Source: a virus
Lineage: Duplodnaviria; Heunggongvirae; Uroviricota; Caudoviricetes
Reading direction: 5' to 3' (one strand)
Virus record (IMG/VR): IMGVR_UViG_2690316115_000011
Span: 1-10,655 of that record
DNA: 10,655 nt
Below, piece after piece: positions 1 through 10,655 of this stretch. A model generated the notes under the pieces. That model had not been told where the DNA came from, did not search any database, and saw only the letters and a program-made list of their open reading frames with translations. Every line of letters starts with the position of its first letter. The first letter of the stretch is position 1. Made by a program: the position numbers and the translations under genes.

Positions 1-69
1 ATTTTCAAGAACCGTTCTGACAGCTTCGGCTTTGAACTCTTTAGAGTAACGTTGGGTTTTTCTGCTCAT
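1..69 (-). CDS. IS3-family transposase OrfA, N-terminal fragment (runs off window)
   Basis: Reverse complement of 1-69 translates to MSRKTQRYSKEFKAEAVRTVLEN, a typical IS3-family OrfA helix-turn-helix N-terminus. AAGGAG sits 8 nt upstream of the ATG (revcomp of 67-69). Not in the ORF track because it is partial. Confidence 0.7.
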   Translation of the reverse strand, partial: MSRKTQRYSKEFKAEAVRTVLEN

Positions 70-133
70 TATTAGCTCCTTCTGATGCCATTCTATTTCA
101 GGAAGGAGTGTCCGTTAAACTCAGGCTACCTCA
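1..133 (-). mobile_element. Terminal ~133 bp of an IS3-family insertion sequence (IS600-like); element continues past the window start
   Basis: Minus strand of 70-133 reads TGAGGTAGCCTGAGTTTAACGGACACTCC..., a TGA-initiated terminus with a GGACAC core as I recall for IS3-family inverted repeats. It is followed by an AAGGAG SD and the transposase OrfA start. The boundary at 133 is inferred; 123 is an alternative. Confidence 0.55.
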
Positions 134-814
134 GAATGCTTTCCCTACAGATTCAGCCAGGCGACTAAGGTGATAGTTCGTCAGTTTATCCAGTTCATGA
201 TGCGCGGCGCGCACAGCAGTAAGCAGGCTCTGAAGGTAACTGTCCTCTGTGTCCATCTCCATACGGATCACGTTATTGCGTTGTTCTGGTGTGGCATGAT
301 GCCGGTATTTTCCATCTTCATCTTTGCTGAATAAGAAGAGGTGAAGGAAGCGATGAGTAAGGCTCAGAGTGGCGACGGGAATTTCACACTCAGAACAGTC
401 ATCGTCGCTGTCCGGGGATTCGTTTTTCTCCACATCATCCGGAATAGTTCCGTCCGGGTCATCGTTGTCATCGCCAGCAGTTGTGGCATCTTCACCGTTG
501 ATGTTGTCATTGAAGGGTATAGCCATCATGGTGATGCCATCTTCCCCGCCTTTTTCATAGCGGTTGCAGAATTCAGTATCAAACACGCCTTCCGGTGGAA
601 GGTCATTCACGACGGGGAAATTTACGCGAACGGGTTTTTTGAAATCATCCTCGTCGTAGCCTGCATCGTCCATGGCTGCAATGCAGCGGGAAACTGCGAC
701 AGAAAGTTTTCTGGCATCAGCCCAGAAAAAACCGCCTTTGATGCCAAGGCGTTTTCTGACTTTATCGTTTTTTGCTTCGCAGTGTAGTGCAAAAGTCTGT
801 TTATCAGCGCTCAT
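131..814 (-). CDS. Hypothetical, strongly acidic protein (227 aa as called); 3' end probably truncated by the IS insertion
   Basis: ORF track. Long D/E-rich central segment (DDAGYDEDDF...DDNDDPDGTIPDDVEKNESPDSDDD). Its stop codon TGA (revcomp of 131-133) is the first three bases of the putative IS terminus. Confidence 0.55.
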   Translation of the reverse strand: MSADKQTFALHCEAKNDKVRKRLGIKGGFFWADARKLSVAVSRCIAAMDDAGYDEDDFKKPVRVNFPVVNDLPPEGVFDTEFCNRYEKGGEDGITMMAIPFNDNINGEDATTAGDDNDDPDGTIPDDVEKNESPDSDDDCSECEIPVATLSLTHRFLHLFLFSKDEDGKYRHHATPEQRNNVIRMEMDTEDSYLQSLLTAVRAAHHELDKLTNYHLSRLAESVGKAF

Positions 815-893
815 TGTATTTAAACCTCTGGCTGGATTAGAATTAGAGGCCCTTTGTCTGATTTCTCCGAATACGGTGACGCAGGGAGAAATC

Positions 894-924
894 CGGTAGC
901 CTGCGCTGCCGGATTTTTATTTCA
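894..924 (+). terminator. Possible plus-strand intrinsic terminator (hairpin plus T-tract) between two minus-strand genes
   Basis: ccggtagcctgcgctgccgg folds as an 8-bp stem (one G-U pair) with a 4-nt loop, followed by atttttatttc on the plus strand. No T-tract in the minus orientation. Confidence 0.35.
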
Positions 925-1308
925 GTGGAAGGTTGCCTGGTTTGCTGTTTTGTGAGTTGTTTTTCCCTTTTCGTGCTGGCATTCAGAGCAGTCGCACTCA
1001 GAATTTTCTCTTGCAAATTCAAGAGCCTGCGCCAGTGTATGGATTTGTTGTGCTCCAATGTTGCTTCTGACGACTTCACATGCAGCATGAATATATGGGC
1101 TTGGTGTTTTGCCATTTAACCCACATGAAACCAAACGACTGTCTTTATATTCGTTATTTCCAACTTCTGTAAGCACTGAAAAAGAAAATACAAAGTCGAT
1201 TTTGTATTCTTTGCATATTTTACTGATGCGTTCTGCAATTTCTTTGAGTTCATTTATTGCATCAGGACTGGTTTCGGAAAATATTTCATTTTGCGCAAGT
1301 TCTTTCAT
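922..1308 (-). CDS. Hypothetical protein, 128 aa, with C-terminal Cys cluster (CDCSECQHE)
   Basis: ORF track; ATG at revcomp 1306-1308 with a weak GGAA SD. No family recognised. Confidence 0.5.
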   Translation of the reverse strand: MKELAQNEIFSETSPDAINELKEIAERISKICKEYKIDFVFSFSVLTEVGNNEYKDSRLVSCGLNGKTPSPYIHAACEVVRSNIGAQQIHTLAQALEFARENSECDCSECQHEKGKTTHKTANQATFH

Positions 1309-1381
1309 TTTGATTTTTCCGTGATTGATAATTAATGCGGTTTTTATTTCGGCAGATATGGAAGGTGTATTTTATTACTCG

Positions 1382-1601
1382 TCACAACGACTCTGCTTTT
1401 ACGGGTAAGCCATCGCGCCCGATGAAAACTTTAATCATGCAGTCGGTAATGCATGTTTTTGTTGTGAAGTTACGAATATAGAGTTTTCTCTTTTCAATAT
1501 TGTTTGCTGAAGCGATATATGTCCGACCTTCATGAAGAACATAATCGCCAGGCGTCACGCACTGACGTGGTATTTCATCAGTTCCGAAGTGATGAGCAAT
1601 C
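1382..1601 (-). CDS. Small protein, 73 aa from the internal ATG ([15 protein letters not shown]...); possibly a Kil-type host-division inhibitor (KilR-like)
   Basis: The ORF track start is a GTG; the ATG at revcomp 1599-1601 is preceded by GGAG at 8-nt spacing. The size and position in the leftward early operon of a lambdoid prophage match Rac KilR (73 aa), but I cannot verify the sequence from memory. Confidence 0.45.
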
Positions 1602-2060
1602 ATAATTATCTCCATTTTCACAAATGAACTTTGTTGATGCGGTGCCTGGTGCCTCCAGGTGGCGTTAACCAGTTAACAATTAACGCCGGGTCAGGGGACG
1701 ATGACTTTCCGTGACATCCTGTCGGTTTAACTGTTCCGCGTGCGCTGAGCCGCATTCACCGCATCACAAAATTCACTTTAAAAAGGGCGGACATCAGCAA
1801 TCGGCAAACCGATATCCGCCAAGGGTTACACACAGCAATGTTGTTATTCACAACCGGAAGCGCACGGTCGAAGAAATCTAACGACAATCCTTCTATGGGA
1901 AAGAGTCTTCGCCTCGCGCTTTCGTGTAGTACCCTGGCTTTTCAGGGTAATGTCTGTTCAGTAAAGTGAGAGTGCCGGAACTCACCCGTGTCCGGCGCAC
2001 GATCTCCACCTCACCCGTGGAGAACTCCTCAACTACAAACCCCGTAAGGAGAGTGAATTT

Positions 2061-2270
2061 ATGACACAAGAAGAAAAAGTGATGTTTCTGATGCGGCTGG
2101 CTGTCGATACCTACAACACACAATTCAGGGAGAAAGATATACCTCAAAAGGCAGTTCCTGCCGCGGTAGATAAGGGCGGTGCTATTGCCGTATTTTACGA
2201 TGCATTTGAATCATTTTTTGATGAAAAACTCGACGCTGTTAGCGACTTCGGAACATCGAGTAATAAATAA
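2061..2270 (+). CDS. Hypothetical 69-aa protein, convergent with the leftward operon
   Basis: ORF track. Strong SD AAGGAG at 2046-2051, 9 nt before the ATG. Non-repetitive, protein-like composition. Its 3' end overlaps the 3' end of the minus-strand gene 2239-2598 by 32 bp. Confidence 0.45.
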   Translation: MTQEEKVMFLMRLAVDTYNTQFREKDIPQKAVPAAVDKGGAIAVFYDAFESFFDEKLDAVSDFGTSSNK

Positions 2271-2598
2271 CGTTCATTACGGTTCTTAAACAACAATCAG
2301 TGGGCTTGATGTTGTTCTTTTCAAGCTCACTTGCCATCACTTCCATTATTCTTGCGCTTACACGAATTATTTGGTGGCTGTAAGCGACGCAACTATCGCT
2401 GATATTGCTGTTTATTTCTATTACTTCATTTTCACTGGCGGCGCTAAATTTGGATATGCCGTTTCCATTGTCCTGTTTCAGTGCTGTTTCCGCTATCCGG
2501 ATGCGTTCCTGCGTTGCGGAATTTGGGCTAAGTCGATAAACCTGTCTGGCATCTTCCAGAAGCAGGGCGATAATGTGCTTCAGTTCTGTTTCATTCAT
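2239..2598 (-). CDS. Hypothetical protein, ~119 aa (start moved to internal ATG, MNETELKH...)
   Basis: ORF track 2239-2619; GGAG lies 7 nt upstream of the ATG at revcomp 2596-2598, so that start is preferred. No family recognised. Confidence 0.5.
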   Translation of the reverse strand: MNETELKHIIALLLEDARQVYRLSPNSATQERIRIAETALKQDNGNGISKFSAASENEVIEINSNISDSCVAYSHQIIRVSARIMEVMASELEKNNIKPTDCCLRTVMNVIYYSMFRSR

Positions 2599-2629
2599 AG
2601 TTAACTCCGGTAGTTGCAATTTATTAATA

Positions 2630-3343
2630 TCAGGCGGTCAGCTCTTTAAGCTTCTGAACTGCTTTATTCATTTCATCCATACAGTCGATGAATTCGTCCA
2701 GTTTAAGCTGCATTTTTCCGGCGGCCTGAAGGATTTCAAGTTTTAAGGGCGCAAGTTTTTTGTTGAATGCATCATCTTCCTGGCGTTTTTTCTCCGCAAT
2801 TTCGGCGGCTTTCAGCAATTCTTCAGCCTGTTTTCTGAGTATTTCTGGTGAAGGTGAAACTGCTTTGAGGTTATTCATTTCAGGTTCCTGTTGTTGCAGA
2901 ATTAATTTGTTGCATTCTCTGCGTGAGCGTTTCATTGCAGATTCGCACTTCTTGCAATAAATGGCTCTCCCGTCACGCTTGCTGGCATCTGAATAAAAAT
3001 CATTGACTGATTTTGTCTGCCCGCATCTGGTACATAATTTTGATTGAAGGTCCTTAATGATTGTGACGTTTCCTTCCCGCTTGGGATATCCATATTTTTT
3101 GTAGCGTAAAAAGGTTACTCCGTTACCAGAACCTTCTTTTCTGACCTTAAATACAATGATGCTTTCCCGTTTATCGATAAAATCTATGAGCTGGTTTCTC
3201 TCCTTTCCTGACAGTTCGGCAAATGTCTTAACTTTTTTAGTAACTTCCGTAAGGCGAACTCCATCAGGCATTTTTTCAACGAAGTTTTTAATCTCTGCAA
3301 GCGGACGCCATAACTTTTGCGGCAAAACTGAAGGCGTGGTCAT
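2630..3343 (-). CDS. Hypothetical protein, ~237 aa, with CxxC...CxxC zinc-ribbon-like motif and K/E-rich probable coiled-coil C-terminus; translationally coupled to N
   Basis: ORF track. On the minus strand the N stop TGA is followed directly by TTG ATG; GAGGTGA sits upstream of that ATG (revcomp 3341-3343). Motif CTRCGQTKS...YCKKCESAMK. Confidence 0.6.
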   Translation of the reverse strand: MTTPSVLPQKLWRPLAEIKNFVEKMPDGVRLTEVTKKVKTFAELSGKERNQLIDFIDKRESIIVFKVRKEGSGNGVTFLRYKKYGYPKREGNVTIIKDLQSKLCTRCGQTKSVNDFYSDASKRDGRAIYCKKCESAMKRSRRECNKLILQQQEPEMNNLKAVSPSPEILRKQAEELLKAAEIAEKKRQEDDAFNKKLAPLKLEILQAAGKMQLKLDEFIDCMDEMNKAVQKLKELTA

Positions 3344-3346
3344 CAA

Positions 3347-3730
3347 TCACCTCGCCGTCAGTTGTTTTGATTTCCGGTAGCCTGCCGCGTAAATGGCTAC
3401 GTTTGGAAGACATACACCAGTTTCTGGTTGCTTATGTCCAAACTCATTCGCGTACACAATGGCTGCTCGCTCCAGATTGTGTCTGTATTCTTTCTGTTGC
3501 CAGATCACGTCCTGTGCCATGAACTTAATTGGCTTAGCGTCTTCTATGCGCTCAGGCGTTTCGTGAGTACCTTTAGCCTGAATCTGCGCTCTGCTTAGAG
3601 TAGGGCGGTGTAATACTTCTGAACTTATTGCTTCTTCGCGGGCCAGCACGCCGTTAGCTAATGCCTTTGCCTTTAAACGCTCACGACGACGAGAACGTGA
3701 ATTGCCTTTGAACTGAGTTCTGCGTGTCAT
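3347..3730 (-). CDS. N: N-type transcription antitermination protein (non-lambda allele, Arg-rich N-terminus; resembles Stx-phage H-19B/933W-type N from memory)
   Basis: First gene downstream of pL/nutL. N-terminus MTRRTQFKGNSRSRRRERLKAKALAN is an arginine-rich motif. AGGAGG lies 6 nt upstream of the ATG (revcomp 3728-3730). 127 aa. Confidence 0.8.
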   Translation of the reverse strand: MTRRTQFKGNSRSRRRERLKAKALANGVLAREEAISSEVLHRPTLSRAQIQAKGTHETPERIEDAKPIKFMAQDVIWQQKEYRHNLERAAIVYANEFGHKQPETGVCLPNVAIYAAGYRKSKQLTAR

Positions 3731-3895
3731 ATAGACCTCCTGATGAACTTTGGTGGTGTGGTAGGTGGGAGACCCATTTCGACCTGTTTCGGCCTACTTC
3801 AATTCGGCAATAGTCCCGCAGGCCTCGCCGCTTTACGTGCGACATATTCCCGTCCATGAACCCTTCACCACACCCCAAAGTTCACTTTGGTTATT

Positions 3896-3910
3896 GCGCT
3901 TTGTCAGCGC
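3896..3910 (-). promoter_or_regulatory. nutL boxB-like hairpin (GCGCU-GACAA-AGCGC on the leftward transcript)
   Basis: Plus strand gcgctttgtcagcgc gives a 5-bp stem and 5-nt loop GACAA on the minus strand, in the pL leader between pL and N. The loop is identical to the nutR hairpin at 6074-6088. An adjacent second dyad is gattcaaatatgaatc. Confidence 0.6.
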
Positions 3911-3978
3911 CGTAGATTCATATTTGAATCGTTGTATATTCACCGCCCTGGTGAGTAGTGCGTCCTGCTGATGTGTTT

Positions 3979-4041
3979 AGTATCACCGCCAGTGGTATTT
4001 ATGTCAACACCGCCAGAGATAATTTATCACCGCAGATGGTT
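3979..4041 (-). promoter_or_regulatory. Lambda-type OL1-OL2-OL3 operators with pL promoter
   Basis: OL1 tatcaccgccagtggta (3981-3997), OL2 caacaccgccagagata (4005-4021), OL3 tatcaccgcagatggtt (4025-4041). On the minus strand the pL -35 TTGACA is revcomp of 4002-4007 and the -10 GATACT is revcomp of 3979-3984. Confidence 0.85.
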
Positions 4042-4190
4042 ATCTGTATGTTTTTTATATGGATTTATTTTTTGCAGGGTTGAGTGGCTTGGGAGGTGAT
4101 CGAGAGATCTGAATTGCGATGTTTAGTGAGTTGTATCTATTTATTTTTCAATAAATACATTTGGTTATGTGTCTTTAGGTGGGGGGGTGA

Positions 4191-4219
4191 GGCAAAGAAA
4201 ACCCGGCTCTGTGGCCGGG
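4191..4219 (-). terminator. Intrinsic terminator ending the cI-operon transcript (timm-like)
   Basis: Minus strand cccggccacagagccggg (6-bp GC stem) followed by ttttctttgcc, immediately downstream of the stop of the 253-aa gene (4228). Confidence 0.7.
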
Positions 4220-4227
4220 AATAACAT

Positions 4228-4989
4228 TTAGGAATCAAGGTCAGGTAGCATGATTTTCTCAATCAACGTCAATGCCCTTTGGTCTCGTTCAGCAAAATAT
4301 TTAGGAGCGTACTGAGGCAGCCACACTTCGTTGAAGTGTTGTTTGAAATCTGCAAGATATTCGTTTGGGTATAGACGTACCGGGAATGTCCGGCCATCTG
4401 GGTACTCATGGTTATATGTTGGGAATGTCTTCGGCTCAACCCCCCGGTTGTCACGGAGCCATTGCGAGAAAACCCTACCCTCTGAAATATCAGGGACCAT
4501 TTTTTCTGGCAGCGTATATCCGGCCTGTTCAAGTGGCGCAACCAAGTTAAACGTCAGTTCATTAAGCATAGAAAAGTGCGTATGAGGAACTCTGCCTCGG
4601 TTTGTCATATACCGCTTAAGGTGGATAGGGAGTTCGGCAGGCGCTCTTTCACCTGACATCCACTCACGCACCCATCTCGATACTTGCACTGCAAATTTTG
4701 GAGATAGCCACTGAGCTAAATTAATTGCGATGTCTGGATGAACCCAAGTCCCTTGATTCTCTGCTCTTCCGCCTTTAAATGATTGAATTAACTCCGATAT
4801 GGGAATCCCCATATCGCGTGATAATTCATCAAAAAAATCTTGTGTTGTTTTTAGTCGTGTATAGTCAGCAAGTAGCTTCCCCGCAGACTTGCACATCGCG
4901 GTGGCATTGATGTATCCGTCTTTGGTGCGAAGATGGATGACTTCTCCATCAACTTCTCTAGCGATTAATGCAAGTTGAAACTGTGTCAT
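4228..4989 (-). CDS. KilA-N/APSES-like domain protein, 253 aa, with uncharacterised C-terminal half; occupies the rexA-rexB position; candidate exclusion/abortive-infection gene
   Basis: ORF track. Start is 31 nt after the cI stop with SD AGGATGA. Residues ~1-105 show KilA-N/APSES-like motifs (INATAMCKSAGKLLADY ... GGRAENQGTWVHPDIAINLAQWLSPKFAV), comparable from memory to the yeast Mbp1 APSES core. The rest is unrecognised. Confidence 0.75.
   Translation of the reverse strand: MTQFQLALIAREVDGEVIHLRTKDGYINATAMCKSAGKLLADYTRLKTTQDFFDELSRDMGIPISELIQSFKGGRAENQGTWVHPDIAINLAQWLSPKFAVQVSRWVREWMSGERAPAELPIHLKRYMTNRGRVPHTHFSMLNELTFNLVAPLEQAGYTLPEKMVPDISEGRVFSQWLRDNRGVEPKTFPTYNHEYPDGRTFPVRLYPNEYLADFKQHFNEVWLPQYAPKYFAERDQRALTLIEKIMLPDLDS
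4795..4816. repeat. 22-bp near-palindrome cgatatgggaatccccatatcg inside the KilA-N gene (codes DMGIPIS)
   Basis: 9-bp perfect inverted arms CGATATGGG/CCCATATCG. Matches 21 of 22 positions with the palindrome at 10624-10645. Confidence 0.9.
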
Positions 4990-5020
4990 AAATCATCCTA
5001 TTACGTGAAAAATAAAACAA

Positions 5021-5737
<717 letters not shown>

Positions 5738-5744
5738 TTAAATC

Positions 5745-5808
5745 TATCACCGCAAGGGATAAATATCTAACACCGTGCGTGTTGACTGTTTTACCTCTAG
5801 CGGTGATA
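5745..5808. promoter_or_regulatory. Lambda-type OR3-OR2-OR1 operators with divergent pRM and pR
   Basis: OR3 tatcaccgcaagggata (5745-5761), OR2 taacaccgtgcgtgttg (5768-5784), OR1 tacctctagcggtgata (5792-5808). pR -35 ttgact (5782-5787) and -10 gataat (5803-5808). Confidence 0.9.
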
Positions 5809-5834
5809 ATGGTTGCATGTACTAAGGAGGTTGT

Positions 5835-6035
5835 ATGGAACAACGCATAACCCTGAAAGATTATGCAATACGCTTTGGGCAAACCAAGACGGCTAAAGAT
5901 CTCGGCGTATATCAAAGCGCGATTAACAAGGCCATTCATGCAGGCCGAAAGATTTTTTTAACTATAAACGCTGATGGAAGCGTTTATGCGGAAGAAATAA
6001 AGCCCTTCCCAAGTAACAAAAAAACAACTGCATAA
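5835..6035 (+). CDS. cro: Cro repressor (66 aa), lambda type
   Basis: [64 protein letters not shown] matches lambda Cro from memory. SD AAGGAGG before the ATG. Confidence 0.95.
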
Positions 6036-6042
6036 GTAACAC

Positions 6043-6088
6043 CGCTCTTTTCACAATGGACATTCGTCCTACGTCGCTGACAAAGCGA
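6043..6088 (+). promoter_or_regulatory. nutR: boxA-like CGCTCTTT (6043-6050) and boxB hairpin UCGCU-GACAA-AGCGA (6074-6088)
   Basis: Directly after the cro stop. boxA matches the lambdoid CGCTCTT(A) consensus. boxB has a 5-bp stem and the same GACAA loop as the nutL hairpin. Confidence 0.65.
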
Positions 6089-6173
6089 GTCCCAAGATAT
6101 CTGACCAACTAAGGCCATATGCGTTTCCACGCATACCTTTCAACTAGCTATTCACTATTGGAAATCATAAGAA

Positions 6174-6470
6174 ATGACACAAACAAGTTACAGCAAACTA
6201 TCCCAGCGTGACGTTGATCGCGCAGAAACAGATTTACTCATCAACCTGTCAGCTCTGACGCAAAGGGGACTGGCAAAGATGATTGGCTGCCATGAATCGA
6301 AGGTCAGTCGTACCGACTGGCGATACATCGCGGCGATTTTATGCGCGTTCCAGATGGCATCTGATATCAGTCCGATCAGCCGGGCTTTCCAGCATGCCAT
6401 TAACGTTCATGCAAATAAAAAACGTCCGGTTGGGGCCGGACGTTCTGAGCAAATCCTGATGAATATCTGA
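6174..6470 (+). CDS. cII: CII-like transcriptional activator (98 aa), non-lambda allele
   Basis: Position after cro/nutR. Shares ESKVSRTDWR (lambda KSQISRWKRDW) and C-terminal NKKRP...RSEQI with lambda CII as recalled. Confidence 0.8.
   Translation: MTQTSYSKLSQRDVDRAETDLLINLSALTQRGLAKMIGCHESKVSRTDWRYIAAILCAFQMASDISPISRAFQHAINVHANKKRPVGAGRSEQILMNI
6413..6442 (-). terminator. oop-like antisense RNA terminator within the 3' end of cII
   Basis: Minus strand: 7-bp perfect stem cgtccgg/ccggacg with a 6-nt loop, followed by ttttttattt. Same location as the lambda oop terminator. Confidence 0.55.
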
Positions 6471-6540
6471 TATTCAGGCAGGGCATGGAGCAATACACGG
6501 GAATAATTCTGCCACATCTGGAAGAATTTCGCCAGCAACA

Positions 6541-6690
6541 ACACCAACCGCAGCAGCCTGAAGCCGATTGGGTTAACCCGGAGATACCGGGACCGTCTGT
6601 GAAGATGTGCAGTCACACCAATGTGCAGTCACACCAACCGCAGCAGCCTGAAGCCGATTGGGTTAACCCGGGAGATACCGGGACCGTCTG
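6541..6690 (+). repeat. Two ~60-bp direct repeats (6541-6599 and 6631-6690) with an embedded GGGTTAACCC palindrome; a 16-nt tandem repeat tgtgcagtcacaccaa x2 at 6606-6637
   Basis: acaccaaccgcagcagcctgaagccgattgggttaacccgg(g)agataccgggaccgtctg occurs twice, differing by one inserted g. Confidence 0.85.
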
Positions 6691-6723
6691 CGGTATGGAG
6701 TAAATCTTGTATGCGAGGGGACT

Positions 6724-7800
6724 ATGCGTAATTACGCAACAATTTCACCTCAGTTCTGGTTAGGCGATACAGGGCGAAAACTAAGGAAGTCTGGTCCGGA
6801 ATGTATGGTAGTGGCGTTGTATATGATGACCTCGCCTCATTCCAATATGCTGGGCCTTTATTACCTGCCTGTTTTGTACATTGCTCACGAAACCGGACTT
6901 GCTCCTGAAGGGGCTTCTAAGGGGCTTCAAATGGCTTGCGAGGCTGGTTTTTGCAGCTATGACCATGATTCTGAGGTTGTATGGGTGCATGAAATGGCAG
7001 CATGGCAGGTTGGTGAATCGCTGAAACCTGGCGATAACCGTTGTGCTGGGGTAAGAAATGAATATTCCGCGTTGCTGGAAAATCCTTTTTTATCATCCTT
7101 TTATGATAGATATAAGGATGATTTCCACCTGGATGTCAGACGTGAATCATGTCGGAAAATTGAAGCCCCTTCAGAGCCCCTTTCAAGCCAAGAACAGGAA
7201 CAGGAACAGGAAAGGGATAAAACCCTTCTGGTCCATGGCGAAAAAATCGCCACGGACCCACAGGGGGATTTTTGTCCTGTTCTGACTGAACGTCCAGGAC
7301 CAGCTGGCACGACACCGGAAGCAGATTCCGGGCGTTGTGTGCAGCAGGTGCTGATCGTCGAACCGGAGCAACAACGCCAACCGCAGCAGCCTGAAGCCGA
7401 TTCCGCGATGAGCGGGAAGCCGATTGGGTTAACCCGGGCGATGCCGGGACCGTCTGCGGGACGAGTTGATTATCCTGACGTGTTCGAACGGGTCTGGCGT
7501 GAATATCCGCATCGGGCAGGGTCAAACCCGAAGAAATCCGCGTTCAATGCCTGGAGGGCCAGATTACGCGAAGGGGTGTCACCGGATGTCGTGCTGGATG
7601 GCGTGAGGCGTTACGCAAGATACCTGGAGGCTACCGGGAAAGCGGGAACTGAATTTGTTCAGCAGGCATCGACGTTTTTTGGCCCGAACAGGAATTTCGA
7701 AAATCCGTGGTCGCTGCCGAAGGCTGGCGCAGTCAGCCTGCGTTGCGTGAATCACATTTCTGAACCGGACACCGAAATTCCGCCGGGTTTCAGGGGGTAA
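6724..7800 (+). CDS. Replication initiation protein (O-like, non-lambda; YdaU/replisome-organiser-like by position and motifs), 358 aa
   Basis: ORF track. SD GAGGGG before the ATG. Position after cII and directly upstream of the DnaC-like gene. Low-complexity acidic linker SSQEQEQEQE. Family assignment is from memory. Confidence 0.75.
   Translation: MRNYATISPQFWLGDTGRKLRKSGPECMVVALYMMTSPHSNMLGLYYLPVLYIAHETGLAPEGASKGLQMACEAGFCSYDHDSEVVWVHEMAAWQVGESLKPGDNRCAGVRNEYSALLENPFLSSFYDRYKDDFHLDVRRESCRKIEAPSEPLSSQEQEQEQERDKTLLVHGEKIATDPQGDFCPVLTERPGPAGTTPEADSGRCVQQVLIVEPEQQRQPQQPEADSAMSGKPIGLTRAMPGPSAGRVDYPDVFERVWREYPHRAGSNPKKSAFNAWRARLREGVSPDVVLDGVRRYARYLEATGKAGTEFVQQASTFFGPNRNFENPWSLPKAGAVSLRCVNHISEPDTEIPPGFRG
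7373..7456 (+). repeat. Third, diverged copy of the 60-bp repeat inside the O-like gene, containing a short internal duplication of gaagccgatt
   Basis: acgccaaccgcagcagcctgaagccgatt[ccgcgatgagcgggaagccgatt]gggttaacccgggcgatgccgggaccgtctg; the bracketed 23 nt is absent from the upstream copies. Confidence 0.8.
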
Positions 7801-7806
7801 TCAGCC

Positions 7807-8547
7807 ATGAAAAACATTTCGACTGGAGGGATTCTTGAACGGGTGCGCCGTCTGGCACCACCGCACGTGGCAGCACCGTTCCGGACGACCGACGAATGGC
7901 GGGAATGGCAACTGGCTGAGGGCCGTAAGCGCAGCGAGGAAATTAACCGCCTGAATCATCAGGCGCGGGTTGAAAAAATCCTGAACCGTGCGGGCATCCA
8001 GCCGCTTCACAGGAAGTGCTCATTCGGGAACTACCGGGTGCAGAACGACGGTCAGCGCCATGCTCTGAGCCAGGCGAAATCCATTGTCGATGAATTGATG
8101 ACCGGTTATACAAACTTCGTGTTCAGCGGGAATCCGGGAACCGGAAAAAATCATCTGGCGGCGGCTGTGGGTAATCGTCTGCTGAAGGCCGGTAAATCCG
8201 TGATAGTGGTCACCGTGGCGGATGTGATGAGCGCGTTACATGCCAGCTATGACGACGGACTGTCAGGGGAAAAATTTTTGCGTGAACTGTGCGAAGTGGA
8301 CCTCCTGGTTCTTGACGAAATTGGCATCCAGCGTGAGACGAAAAACGAGCAGGTGGTACTGCACCAGATTGTTGACCGCCGGACGGCATCACTGCGCAGT
8401 GTCGGGATGCTGACAAACCTGAATCATGCCGCAATGAGCACGCTTCTTGGTGAGAGGATTATGGACCGGATGACCATGAACGGTGGTCGTTGGGTGAATT
8501 TTAACTGGGAGAGCTGGCGGTCAAACGTTGGACGTCAGGGTATGTGA
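7807..8547 (+). CDS. DnaC-like replicative helicase loader (AAA+), 246 aa
   Basis: Walker A SGNPGTGKNHLAAAVGNRLL, Walker B DLLVLDEIG, then QIVDRR...GMLTNLN...LGERIMDRM...WVNFNWESWR. Collinear with E. coli DnaC as recalled. Confidence 0.9.
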   Translation: MKNISTGGILERVRRLAPPHVAAPFRTTDEWREWQLAEGRKRSEEINRLNHQARVEKILNRAGIQPLHRKCSFGNYRVQNDGQRHALSQAKSIVDELMTGYTNFVFSGNPGTGKNHLAAAVGNRLLKAGKSVIVVTVADVMSALHASYDDGLSGEKFLRELCEVDLLVLDEIGIQRETKNEQVVLHQIVDRRTASLRSVGMLTNLNHAAMSTLLGERIMDRMTMNGGRWVNFNWESWRSNVGRQGM

Positions 8548-8572
8548 GAATTTTTGACGAGGTAAATTTTCG

Positions 8573-9343
8573 ATGGAAACCGTATTACATGCACTGAAAG
8601 CGATGGGAAAAGCCAATTCTGTTGAACTGGCGGCACGACTTGATATCAGCCGTGAAGAAGTTCTCAACGAACTGTGGGAGCTCAAAAAAAATGGCGTTGT
8701 TGATAAAACGGGTCACACCTGGTTTCTGGCTGTCGAAGGTGAATCCCGGGTAACCGAAGAGCGGCCAGTAAAATCTGAAACACAGGATATGCTGACCGAA
8801 GAGGTCGCTCCAAAAGTTAGCGCTGACATGATGATTGAGTTTATCTCTCAGGAGGGGGCTAAAACCTGTGAGGAACTGGCGGGGAAGTTCGGTGTCAGCA
8901 CTCGTAAGGTTGCTTCCACGTTGGCGGTGGTAACAGCAACGAGACGCCTGGTACGCGAGATCAGCAACGGAAAATTCCGTTACAAAATGCCTGATGTCGA
9001 AAACGGCGATTTGAGCGCCTTATCATCGCAGAATAAGCAATCACACCATGACGCAGAAAACAGCGCGGCAGGCGATGAAATGAATCGTTTTCCGTTGGCA
9101 TCAGAGAGCACGGCAAAGGCCAGTACAGATGAGTTTATCCGAGAAGTTCCATCATTCACCGAAAAATCTGCCAGTTCGGTGATGCTTCCATCGCTGCATG
9201 CTGCCAGTCGAGAACTTCGTCGCGCCAAAAAACAGGTCCAGAAGTGGGAGCGAGTCTGCGCCGCGCTGCGGGAGCTGAACAAGCACCGGGATATTGTTCG
9301 ACAGATTGTCGATTCATCCGGTCGTATTGTGTCGGAAAAGTGA
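8573..9343 (+). CDS. Hypothetical phage protein, 256 aa, with two winged-helix-like segments
   Basis: ORF track; GAGG upstream of the ATG. No family recognised. Confidence 0.6.
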   Translation: METVLHALKAMGKANSVELAARLDISREEVLNELWELKKNGVVDKTGHTWFLAVEGESRVTEERPVKSETQDMLTEEVAPKVSADMMIEFISQEGAKTCEELAGKFGVSTRKVASTLAVVTATRRLVREISNGKFRYKMPDVENGDLSALSSQNKQSHHDAENSAAGDEMNRFPLASESTAKASTDEFIREVPSFTEKSASSVMLPSLHAASRELRRAKKQVQKWERVCAALRELNKHRDIVRQIVDSSGRIVSEK

Positions 9344-9358
9344 TTGCCGGAGGCGCTT

Positions 9359-9754
9359 ATGGCGAAACCTTTTACACACGAACAGCGGGAAGAACTGAAG
9401 GCACGAATTATCGGATTGGTACGCAAAAATGAACGCATGACGATATCGCAACTGGAGAGAGCGACGGGAGCAGGCTGGCATTCAGTCAGACGTTGCCTTG
9501 TGGATGTACTGGCTTGTGGCGATTTATACATGTCCGGTAAATACGGTGTTTTTGCATCAGAACAGGTGTATCGCGTATGGCGTAAGACACCGGAGAAAAC
9601 AACTGACCAGACATTGATTCGAAAGTTACCAGACGGAGAAATTCGCCGCTACGATAGACGCCTGAACATAATCTGTCGCGAGTGCCGGAATAGTGAAGTT
9701 ATGCAGCGCGTGCTGGCTTTCTATCAGGGGAATTTTCAGGAGGCGGTACTGTGA
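9359..9754 (+). CDS. Hypothetical phage protein, ~131 aa (start moved to ATG at 9359)
   Basis: The ORF track start at 9344 is TTG; GGAGG at 9349-9353 precedes the ATG at 9359. No family recognised. Confidence 0.55.
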   Translation: MAKPFTHEQREELKARIIGLVRKNERMTISQLERATGAGWHSVRRCLVDVLACGDLYMSGKYGVFASEQVYRVWRKTPEKTTDQTLIRKLPDGEIRRYDRRLNIICRECRNSEVMQRVLAFYQGNFQEAVL

Positions 9755-9810
9755 GTAAATTAGCTATCAGGCTTCAATTGTCGCTGGCATTCGCATCAAA
9801 GGAGAATGAG

Positions 9811-10395
9811 ATGACCACTTTTACAAAAGAGCAGTTAATCAGTCATGTTAGTGAAAATGTAAAGGCGATGAAATTTGCAGTAAAACAGACAGCATTCAAA
9901 AATTCTCTCGAGGCAATTGAGTTGGATTTAGCACTGGCCCTTGTTGCTCAGGCTTCGCTGGAAGCAGAGCCCGTGCTTTATATGAATCGATTTACCGGAA
10001 AGACATTCTCACTGGAAGAGCAACCCGGTGCTGATAAGGAACCGGAAATATACGTGCCGCTATATGCTGCCCCGCCAGACAGCGCCGCCATGCTTCAGGC
10101 TGGAAACTTTCGGGAAAAGAAGGGTTCGTCAACCAATAATTTTCGGGAAATCTCGGAAACGTCAACCAACCATCCGGTAACTCTGGATGGTTGGATAAGC
10201 TGTAGTGAGCGAATGCCGGATGACGGTCAGCACGTAATTATTTTATGTGATGGCGCATTCGTTCTTTATGCGCAATATCGAGACGGTGAGTTTTTTGATG
10301 TAGTCCGTGATGGTGATGAATTTTTCGAAACACAGAGCCGCAATGTAACCGACTGGATGCCGCTACCAGAACCGCCGCAGGAGGTGCGCCAATGA
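9811..10395 (+). CDS. DUF551-like phage protein, ~194 aa (start moved to ATG at 9811)
   Basis: AAAGGAG at 9798-9804 precedes the ATG at 9811. C-terminus DGWISCSERMPDDGQHVIIL...DWMPLPEPP matches the DUF551 signature as I recall it. Internal imperfect tandem NFREKKGSSTN/NFREISETSTN. Confidence 0.65.
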   Translation: MTTFTKEQLISHVSENVKAMKFAVKQTAFKNSLEAIELDLALALVAQASLEAEPVLYMNRFTGKTFSLEEQPGADKEPEIYVPLYAAPPDSAAMLQAGNFREKKGSSTNNFREISETSTNHPVTLDGWISCSERMPDDGQHVIILCDGAFVLYAQYRDGEFFDVVRDGDEFFETQSRNVTDWMPLPEPPQEVRQ

Positions 10396-10475
10396 ACTGG
10401 CCTGAAGCATTTGCAATTACAGGCGTTGCTATGGCTATCACCTTTTTAGTATATGTTATTTGTCGGTGGGGGTAA
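10392..10475 (+). CDS. Small hydrophobic peptide, 27 aa (MNWPEAFAITGVAMAITFLVYVICRWG), overlapping the upstream stop (ATGA)
   Basis: Found by reading; below the ORF-track size cutoff. One predicted transmembrane helix. No clear SD of its own (possible coupling). Confidence 0.35.
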   Translation: MNWPEAFAITGVAMAITFLVYVICRWG

Positions 10476-10510
10476 AAACGTTCGCCGGGATTAACACCAA
10501 AGGAGGGAAT

Positions 10511-10615
10511 ATGTCGGATGATATATCACTGGCAATGGAAGGTGCGCTGGCTGTTATTGCTGTTGTGGGCGTTTACTGCCTGGTTGTGTTTTTGATGGAT
10601 CGACTAGGGAACTGA
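10511..10615 (+). CDS. Small hydrophobic peptide, 34 aa (MSDDISLAMEGALAVIAVVGVYCLVVFLMDRLGN)
   Basis: Found by reading. SD AAAGGAGGG 4-5 nt before the ATG at 10511. One predicted transmembrane helix. Confidence 0.45.
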   Translation: MSDDISLAMEGALAVIAVVGVYCLVVFLMDRLGN

Positions 10616-10623
10616 ATTCATTA

Positions 10624-10645
10624 CGATATGGGAATTCCCATATCG
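10624..10645. repeat. Perfect 22-bp palindrome cgatatgggaattcccatatcg
   Basis: The two 11-nt halves are exact reverse complements. Differs by one base from the copy at 4795-4816. Confidence 0.9.
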
Positions 10646-10655
10646 GGTAAAAACG

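Follow-up and report, generated by a model that had tools for sequence, protein, structure and literature searches.

IS600 was found to interrupt a RecE-family gene at one end of the window, the whole 10,655-nt stretch of prophage DNA that was analysed. The insertion lies at codon 227/228 and truncates a gene of 690 codons, and we put the probability of a simple insertion with a duplicated TTC at about 0.93. In this event IS600, of which the reference copy has 1264 bp, would have transposed into a gene of the same orientation in the leftward (pL) early operon of a prophage that has lambda immunity and is integrated beside sapC. Translation of the interrupted gene would start at the native ATG (814), proceed through Phe227, and be halted by a TGA that the left inverted repeat supplies with its first three bases. 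The TTC would be duplicated at both ends of the element, and the distal part of the gene would follow the other IS end, with gam, bet, exo, a DUF4222 gene, an xis-like gene, and int after it. We infer that the IS600 copy at this site is full length; as 133 nt of it are visible, it may also be internally deleted or composite.

Table 1 Features at the junction of IS600 and the RecE-family gene in the window.
Feature	Position	Strand	Remarks
IS600 left end (IS3 family)	1–133	–	Terminal inverted repeat, 5' leader, and first 23 orfA codons
IS600 orfA, codons 1–23 (MSRKTQRYSKEFKAEAVRTVLEN...)	1–69	–	ATG 69–67; Shine-Dalgarno AGGAG 80–76
IS600 left terminal inverted repeat TGAGGTAGCCTGAGTTTAACGGACAC	108–133	–	Imperfect pairing with the right end
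TGA stop of the truncated gene	131–133	–	First three IS600 bases; CCC (Pro228) in the intact gene
TTC (Phe227), one copy of the 3-bp target-site duplication	134–136	–	Single in ML35; repeated at 108–110 of contig L014
RecE-family gene, codons 1–227 of 690	134–814	–	Residues 1–227 of ML35 WP_032207275.1; PF06630; NF007259
Context of the RecE-family gene			pL operon, between the kil side and gam

Members of the IS3 family have 5'-TG...CA-3' ends with imperfect inverted repeats, duplicate 3 bp of their target, and express orfA (helix-turn-helix) and orfB (DDE) as a fusion through a programmed –1 frameshift. The first 133 nt of the window were identical at 133/133 positions to the reference IS600 of E. 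coli E2865 (locus L012, 2501–2633). This reference copy (L012 2501–3764) interrupts ninF, is bracketed by the 3-bp direct repeat CGC within that gene, begins with TGAGGTAGCC, and ends with ACACCTCA. Counting places with a query coverage of 80% or more, the same 133 nt occurred with 100% identity in 3,004 of 5,426 complete E. coli genomes (E = 2e-62), where the copies are named 'IS3-like element IS600 family transposase' by PGAP. The match to IS600 is thus far beyond chance, and the element continues past base 1 of the window. Its right end, ACACCTCA, was present both in L012 and in L014, the contig that carries the second junction described below, giving termini of TG...CA. A comparison of the left repeat TGAGGTAGCCTGAGTTTAACGGACAC with TGAGGTGTACTGGCAATAGCGGACAC, the reverse-complemented right end, showed imperfect pairing in which TGAGGT and an inner CGGACAC were kept.

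The exact IS600 terminus was fixed at position 133 by two independent lines of evidence. The E2865 copy, which has a target duplication on both sides, starts with the same bases that end at window position 133, and because the 133 nt of the window are the first 133 nt of that copy, the terminus must lie there. Homology to the uninterrupted gene, in both phage PhiR5_2 and E. coli ML35, stopped exactly between positions 133 and 134; the PhiR5_2 alignment was perfect down to position 134 and random below it. A preliminary description of the window, made from the sequence alone, had guessed an IS600-like left end and had considered 123 as another place for its terminus; the element was as guessed, and the terminus is at 133, not 123. 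Its central proposal, that an IS3-family element inserted inside a gene, was borne out by the same identity and homology break.

The minus-strand ORF 131–814 encodes 227 aa from an ATG at 814–812, and its 3' end reads ...GGG AAA GCA TTC TGA. The TGA (133–131) opens the inverted-repeat string TGAGGTAGCCTGAGTTTAACGGACAC and is followed downstream by GGTAGCCTGAGTTTAACGGACAC, so that the stop codon is shared with the IS terminus, as had been noticed in the preliminary description. The 227-aa product matched Pfam PF06630 over residues 52–197 (E = 2.5e-13) and positions 1–199 of the NCBIfam model NF007259, and no defence-system match was obtained for it with PADLOC. It is without the 463 C-terminal residues of the intact protein: the truncation spares the part matching PF06630 and deletes the block that is most conserved with RecE (about residues 250–520) together with the C-terminal tail. 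We infer that the function of the C-terminal two-thirds is lost. Sixteen contigs, drawn from independent NCBI, ENA, and Logan samples, encoded the exact 227-aa protein; the junction is accordingly real and recurs. Among those listed, all the contigs with this protein end inside or at the IS, and its NCBI entry is named 'RecE family exodeoxyribonuclease, partial'.

Beyond the stop codon, as the preliminary description had it, the strand leads into a Shine-Dalgarno sequence and the N-terminus of OrfA. The orfA reading frame leaves the window at base 1, and its 23 residues matched Pfam HTH_Tnp_1 with E = 6.7e-5 (23.5 bits, against a cut-off of 24.1). For identical DNA in L012, the annotation gives an IS600 transposase with a programmed frameshift. 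The element has the orientation of pL transcription and directly follows the truncated ORF, and a sequence scan found no terminator-like site on the IS600 sense strand.

Several regulatory signals were predicted in the IS600 left end. On the minus strand, a hairpin may form at 76–108, in which CUCCUUC.CUG (108–98) pairs with CAGAAGGAG (85–76), and the pairing of its 5' arm would cover the orfA Shine-Dalgarno sequence. The predicted fold of the IS left end contained this local hairpin and had an overall z-score of 0.18, which is not significant. A promoter-like –35/–10 pair lies at 118–113 and 95–90. Transcripts from this pair would begin downstream of the 5' arm of the hairpin, and therefore only read-through transcripts from outside, such as those from pL, would hide the Shine-Dalgarno sequence. 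Considered jointly with the RecE-family fragment, these signals suggest a scenario to which we give little credence. Prophage induction (SOS, followed by pL transcription and N antitermination) could drive read-through of orfA/orfB and couple IS600 transposition to induction, or the predicted 108–76 hairpin, with CUCCUUC opposite the orfA Shine-Dalgarno sequence, could block translation solely from read-through transcripts. At the same time, an autonomous function of the RecE N-terminal region might persist in the 227-aa acidic fragment.

The uninterrupted form of the target gene was found in phages and in the ML35 prophage. A megablast search of window positions 134–1320 against phage genomes recovered six phages, Stx-type and lambdoid, with 95% or more of the length covered. 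In these, the region forms the 5' portion of a ~2.07-kb gene that carries the name exodeoxyribonuclease VIII. Over the 10,522 nt from position 134 to 10,655, the window differed from the E. coli ML35 prophage by three mismatches and no gaps (99.97%). The ML35 gene (L013 7609–9681) encodes an uninterrupted 690-aa protein, WP_032207275.1, whose residues 1–227 are identical to the window product and which then continues as ...GKAF-PHSANHRISPAEF.... The relatives of this protein were mostly 680–700 aa long (120 database matches listed), and no intact homologue naturally ending at residue 227 was seen. Since the ML35 gene reads on and most of the listed relatives have 680–700 aa, the stop at residue 227 is not native, and the 227-aa product is C-terminally truncated as had been supposed.

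The three differences between the window and ML35 are at positions 5774 and 5788, in the cI–cro intergenic region, and at 3480, in the N gene. The G at 5788 is private to the window, being absent from its closest contig (L002), and falls in the spacer just after the TTGACT –35 element of a pR-like promoter; the T at 5774 is private to ML35 and falls within an OR2-like site. The immunity region of the window is presumably lambda-like, judging by the lambda OR sequence. Position 3480 determines residue 84 of N, which is His in the IS-bearing lineage (the window, L002, and L003) and Arg in ML35 and PhiR5_2. At L013 12214–12282 of ML35, PGAP gives only a 69-nt 'regulator, incomplete' pseudogene, and the equivalent region of the window (3347–3730) contains an intact 127-aa N-peptide ORF, to which ML35 aligned gap-free with a single substitution. 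The ML35 label thus looks like an annotation gap with no real disruption of the gene.

The other end of the insertion was recovered with the missing C-terminal 463 aa as query. The search found a 443-aa protein (P0045) corresponding to M248–S690 of the ML35 protein and named 'Exodeoxyribonuclease VIII (putative partial) from phage origin' in its source. Its contig, CYAY01000039.1 (L014) of assembly GCA_001286405.1, starts in the IS600 right end, with positions 1–107 identical to the E2865 reference at 105/107 positions. Positions 108–110 are TTC, and from 111 the contig reads CCCCACTCTGCAAATC..., which is the ML35 sequence from codon 228. The TTC is thus single at the empty site of ML35 and flanks the IS on both sides (window 136–134 on the minus strand and L014 108–110), the two junctions coming from different assemblies; from these sequences it is the 3-bp duplication expected of an IS3-family element. 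The other IS end and target duplication, which the preliminary description had proposed to seek upstream of the window, were therefore found, though in a related assembly. A 506-aa protein (P0028) was also considered as the remainder of an IS fusion, and it was rejected as an N-terminally shortened call of an uninterrupted gene from Met185.

Beyond the second junction, L014 carries gam, bet, exo, the DUF4222 gene, the xis-like gene, and int, followed by sapC/D/F, ycjD, and fabI, with the same attachment site as ML35. Its prophage arm was 100% identical to that of ML35, and all 30 mismatches were in the chromosomal flank. With TTC on both sides and gam through int present in L014, the data are best read as a simple insertion in which the rest of the left arm was kept. 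The preliminary description had regarded the prophage left arm as disrupted. This holds for the one interrupted gene; it does not hold for gam, bet, exo, the xis-like gene, and int, all of which are in the contig with the second junction and are identical to those of ML35.

The first junction was represented by contigs of GCA_017117915.1, GCA_036036285.1, and several read sets, and the second by GCA_001286405.1. Every contig found breaks within the IS. The entries CTT77706.1 and CTT51999.1 are numbered too far apart for a single genome, and the accessions give no link between the two junctions. Their identical site, orientation, and duplication suggest that both are present in the window's own genome. 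The first junction was absent from all 5,426 complete E. coli genomes searched, and exact patterns for the first and the predicted second junction gave zero matches in the genome-contig and metagenome-contig collections. The pattern for the second junction had assumed GCCAGTA, where the real copy has GTCAGTA; because the first junction was also absent from both contig collections, the absence of the second there is uninformative.

Three other explanations of the junction were weighed against a simple insertion. If the stop codon were native and the IS ended at another place, such as 123, the 227-aa protein would be complete, with the IS just adjoining its gene. This is hardly credible, as the genes of the near-isogenic ML35 prophage and of PhiR5_2 run in frame for 463 more codons from exactly 134/133, and an independent IS600 with a target duplication on both sides likewise begins with TGAGGTAGCC. 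An assembly chimera, in which a prophage contig was joined to an IS600 repeat, would fit with IS copies being classic sites of misassembly and with all junction-bearing contigs ending within the IS. However, the same junction and exact 227-aa product recurred across independent samples and assemblers, and there is a complementary junction with a matching 3-bp duplication, whereas a chimera would not create a target-site duplication. A chimera is accordingly a most improbable source of the junction.

A rearrangement in the source genome deserves somewhat more consideration and is still improbable. IS600 could there border an IS-mediated deletion or inversion by which the distal part of the gene and gam–int were lost or moved, with a sister lineage keeping the simple insertion. 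The window does end inside the IS, the two junctions are known from separate assemblies, and IS3-family elements, especially with IEE, have been reported to delete flanking regions (PMC9397093). On the other hand, the second junction has the predicted site, orientation, and TTC, and the arm beyond it is 100% identical to ML35. The same insertion event, sampled in its simple state, is the simplest reading of these observations.

The interrupted gene had been described as an acidic early-left gene. The intact 690-aa protein is indeed acidic, with a pI of 4.55, and the description can now be amended to a homologue of RecE, corresponding to the N-terminal region of Exo VIII. It was 51% identical to residues 43–578 of RecE of the Rac prophage, hit Pfam PF06630, and matched positions 1–598 of 877 in NF007259 with 742 bits, against an equivalog cut-off of 1269. 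Residues 605–866 of K-12 RecE matched PDB 3H4R, the nuclease domain that has been crystallised. No PDB match was obtained for the 690-aa protein, and the C-terminal nuclease domain (RecE about 605–866) was not detected in it by sequence. RecE itself (exodeoxyribonuclease VIII of the Rac prophage, E. coli K-12 b1350, 866 aa) is encoded at the matching place downstream of kil in the early-left operon. Compared with K-12 RecE, the 690-aa protein ends in a short hydrophobic tail without the catalytic C-terminal nuclease domain, and its gene is immediately followed by lambda-type gam, bet, and exo rather than recT. By its sequence, the protein is homologous to the N-terminal region of RecE and has no detectable nuclease domain. 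The name 'exodeoxyribonuclease VIII / RecE family exodeoxyribonuclease', in wide use for the intact 690-aa protein, is probably misleading for the product of L013 7609–9681, because no nuclease domain was detected and lambda Red genes adjoin.

The genes gam, bet, exo, the xis-like gene, and int are upstream of the IS in window coordinates and downstream of it in pL transcription, and these are the genes that a predicted polarity of the insertion could affect. The prophage encodes an N protein (3347–3730, PF25694), and N-modified polymerase reportedly suppresses the polarity of IS insertions, a finding said to go back to Adhya, Gottesman and de Crombrugghe in 1974. N antitermination would thus probably reduce the predicted polarity. 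Polarity on these genes is expected to be partial at most during induction, since read-through by N-modified polymerase coming from pL is likely.

IS600 belongs to the IS3 group of the IS3 family and was first described in Shigella sonnei. The present copy is like the known element in everything visible, as its 133 nt, TG...CA ends, imperfect repeats, helix-turn-helix N-terminus of OrfA, and 3-bp duplication all match. The mechanism is no different from that of known IS600; the target alone is specific, and the right end in L014 is 2/107 off the E2865 copy. IS600 and related IS3-family elements have been amplified in both Shigella and STEC, including O121:H19, and they are known to inactivate genes; in O121:H19, IS600 inactivated lacZ (PMC9397093). 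The insertion described here is another ordinary instance of such gene inactivation. It also resembles the IS629, IS1203, and IS600 insertions in defective or variant STEC prophages, which likewise place an IS3-family element in a non-essential early lambdoid gene of a clonal lineage, but the present site occurred in 0 of 5,426 complete E. coli genomes. The truncation is already apparent in public records, which label both gene halves as partial. The appropriate label for the 227-aa ORF is a pseudogene fragment of a RecE-family gene truncated by IS600, and it should not be presented as a complete acidic protein. The insertion serves as a clonal marker of the prophage lineage and has little import beyond annotation.

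Two other features of the window were observed. The minus-strand ORF at 4228–4989, directly beside cI, encodes a 253-aa KilA-N/BstA_C protein that matched the PADLOC BstA model (E = 2.5e-20), and it is likely a prophage-encoded abortive-infection defence gene of a known kind. A repeat of roughly 70–90 nt (...CAACCGCAGCAGCCTGAAGCCGATTGGGTTAACCCGG...) occurs in three copies, at 6534–6602, 6624–6693, and 7367–7459. Two copies, 90 nt apart, are in a small ORF (6485–6703), and one is in the 358-aa replication gene at the O position. Each copy encodes QQPQQPEAD, and the repeats may be initiator-binding iterons or recombination scars.
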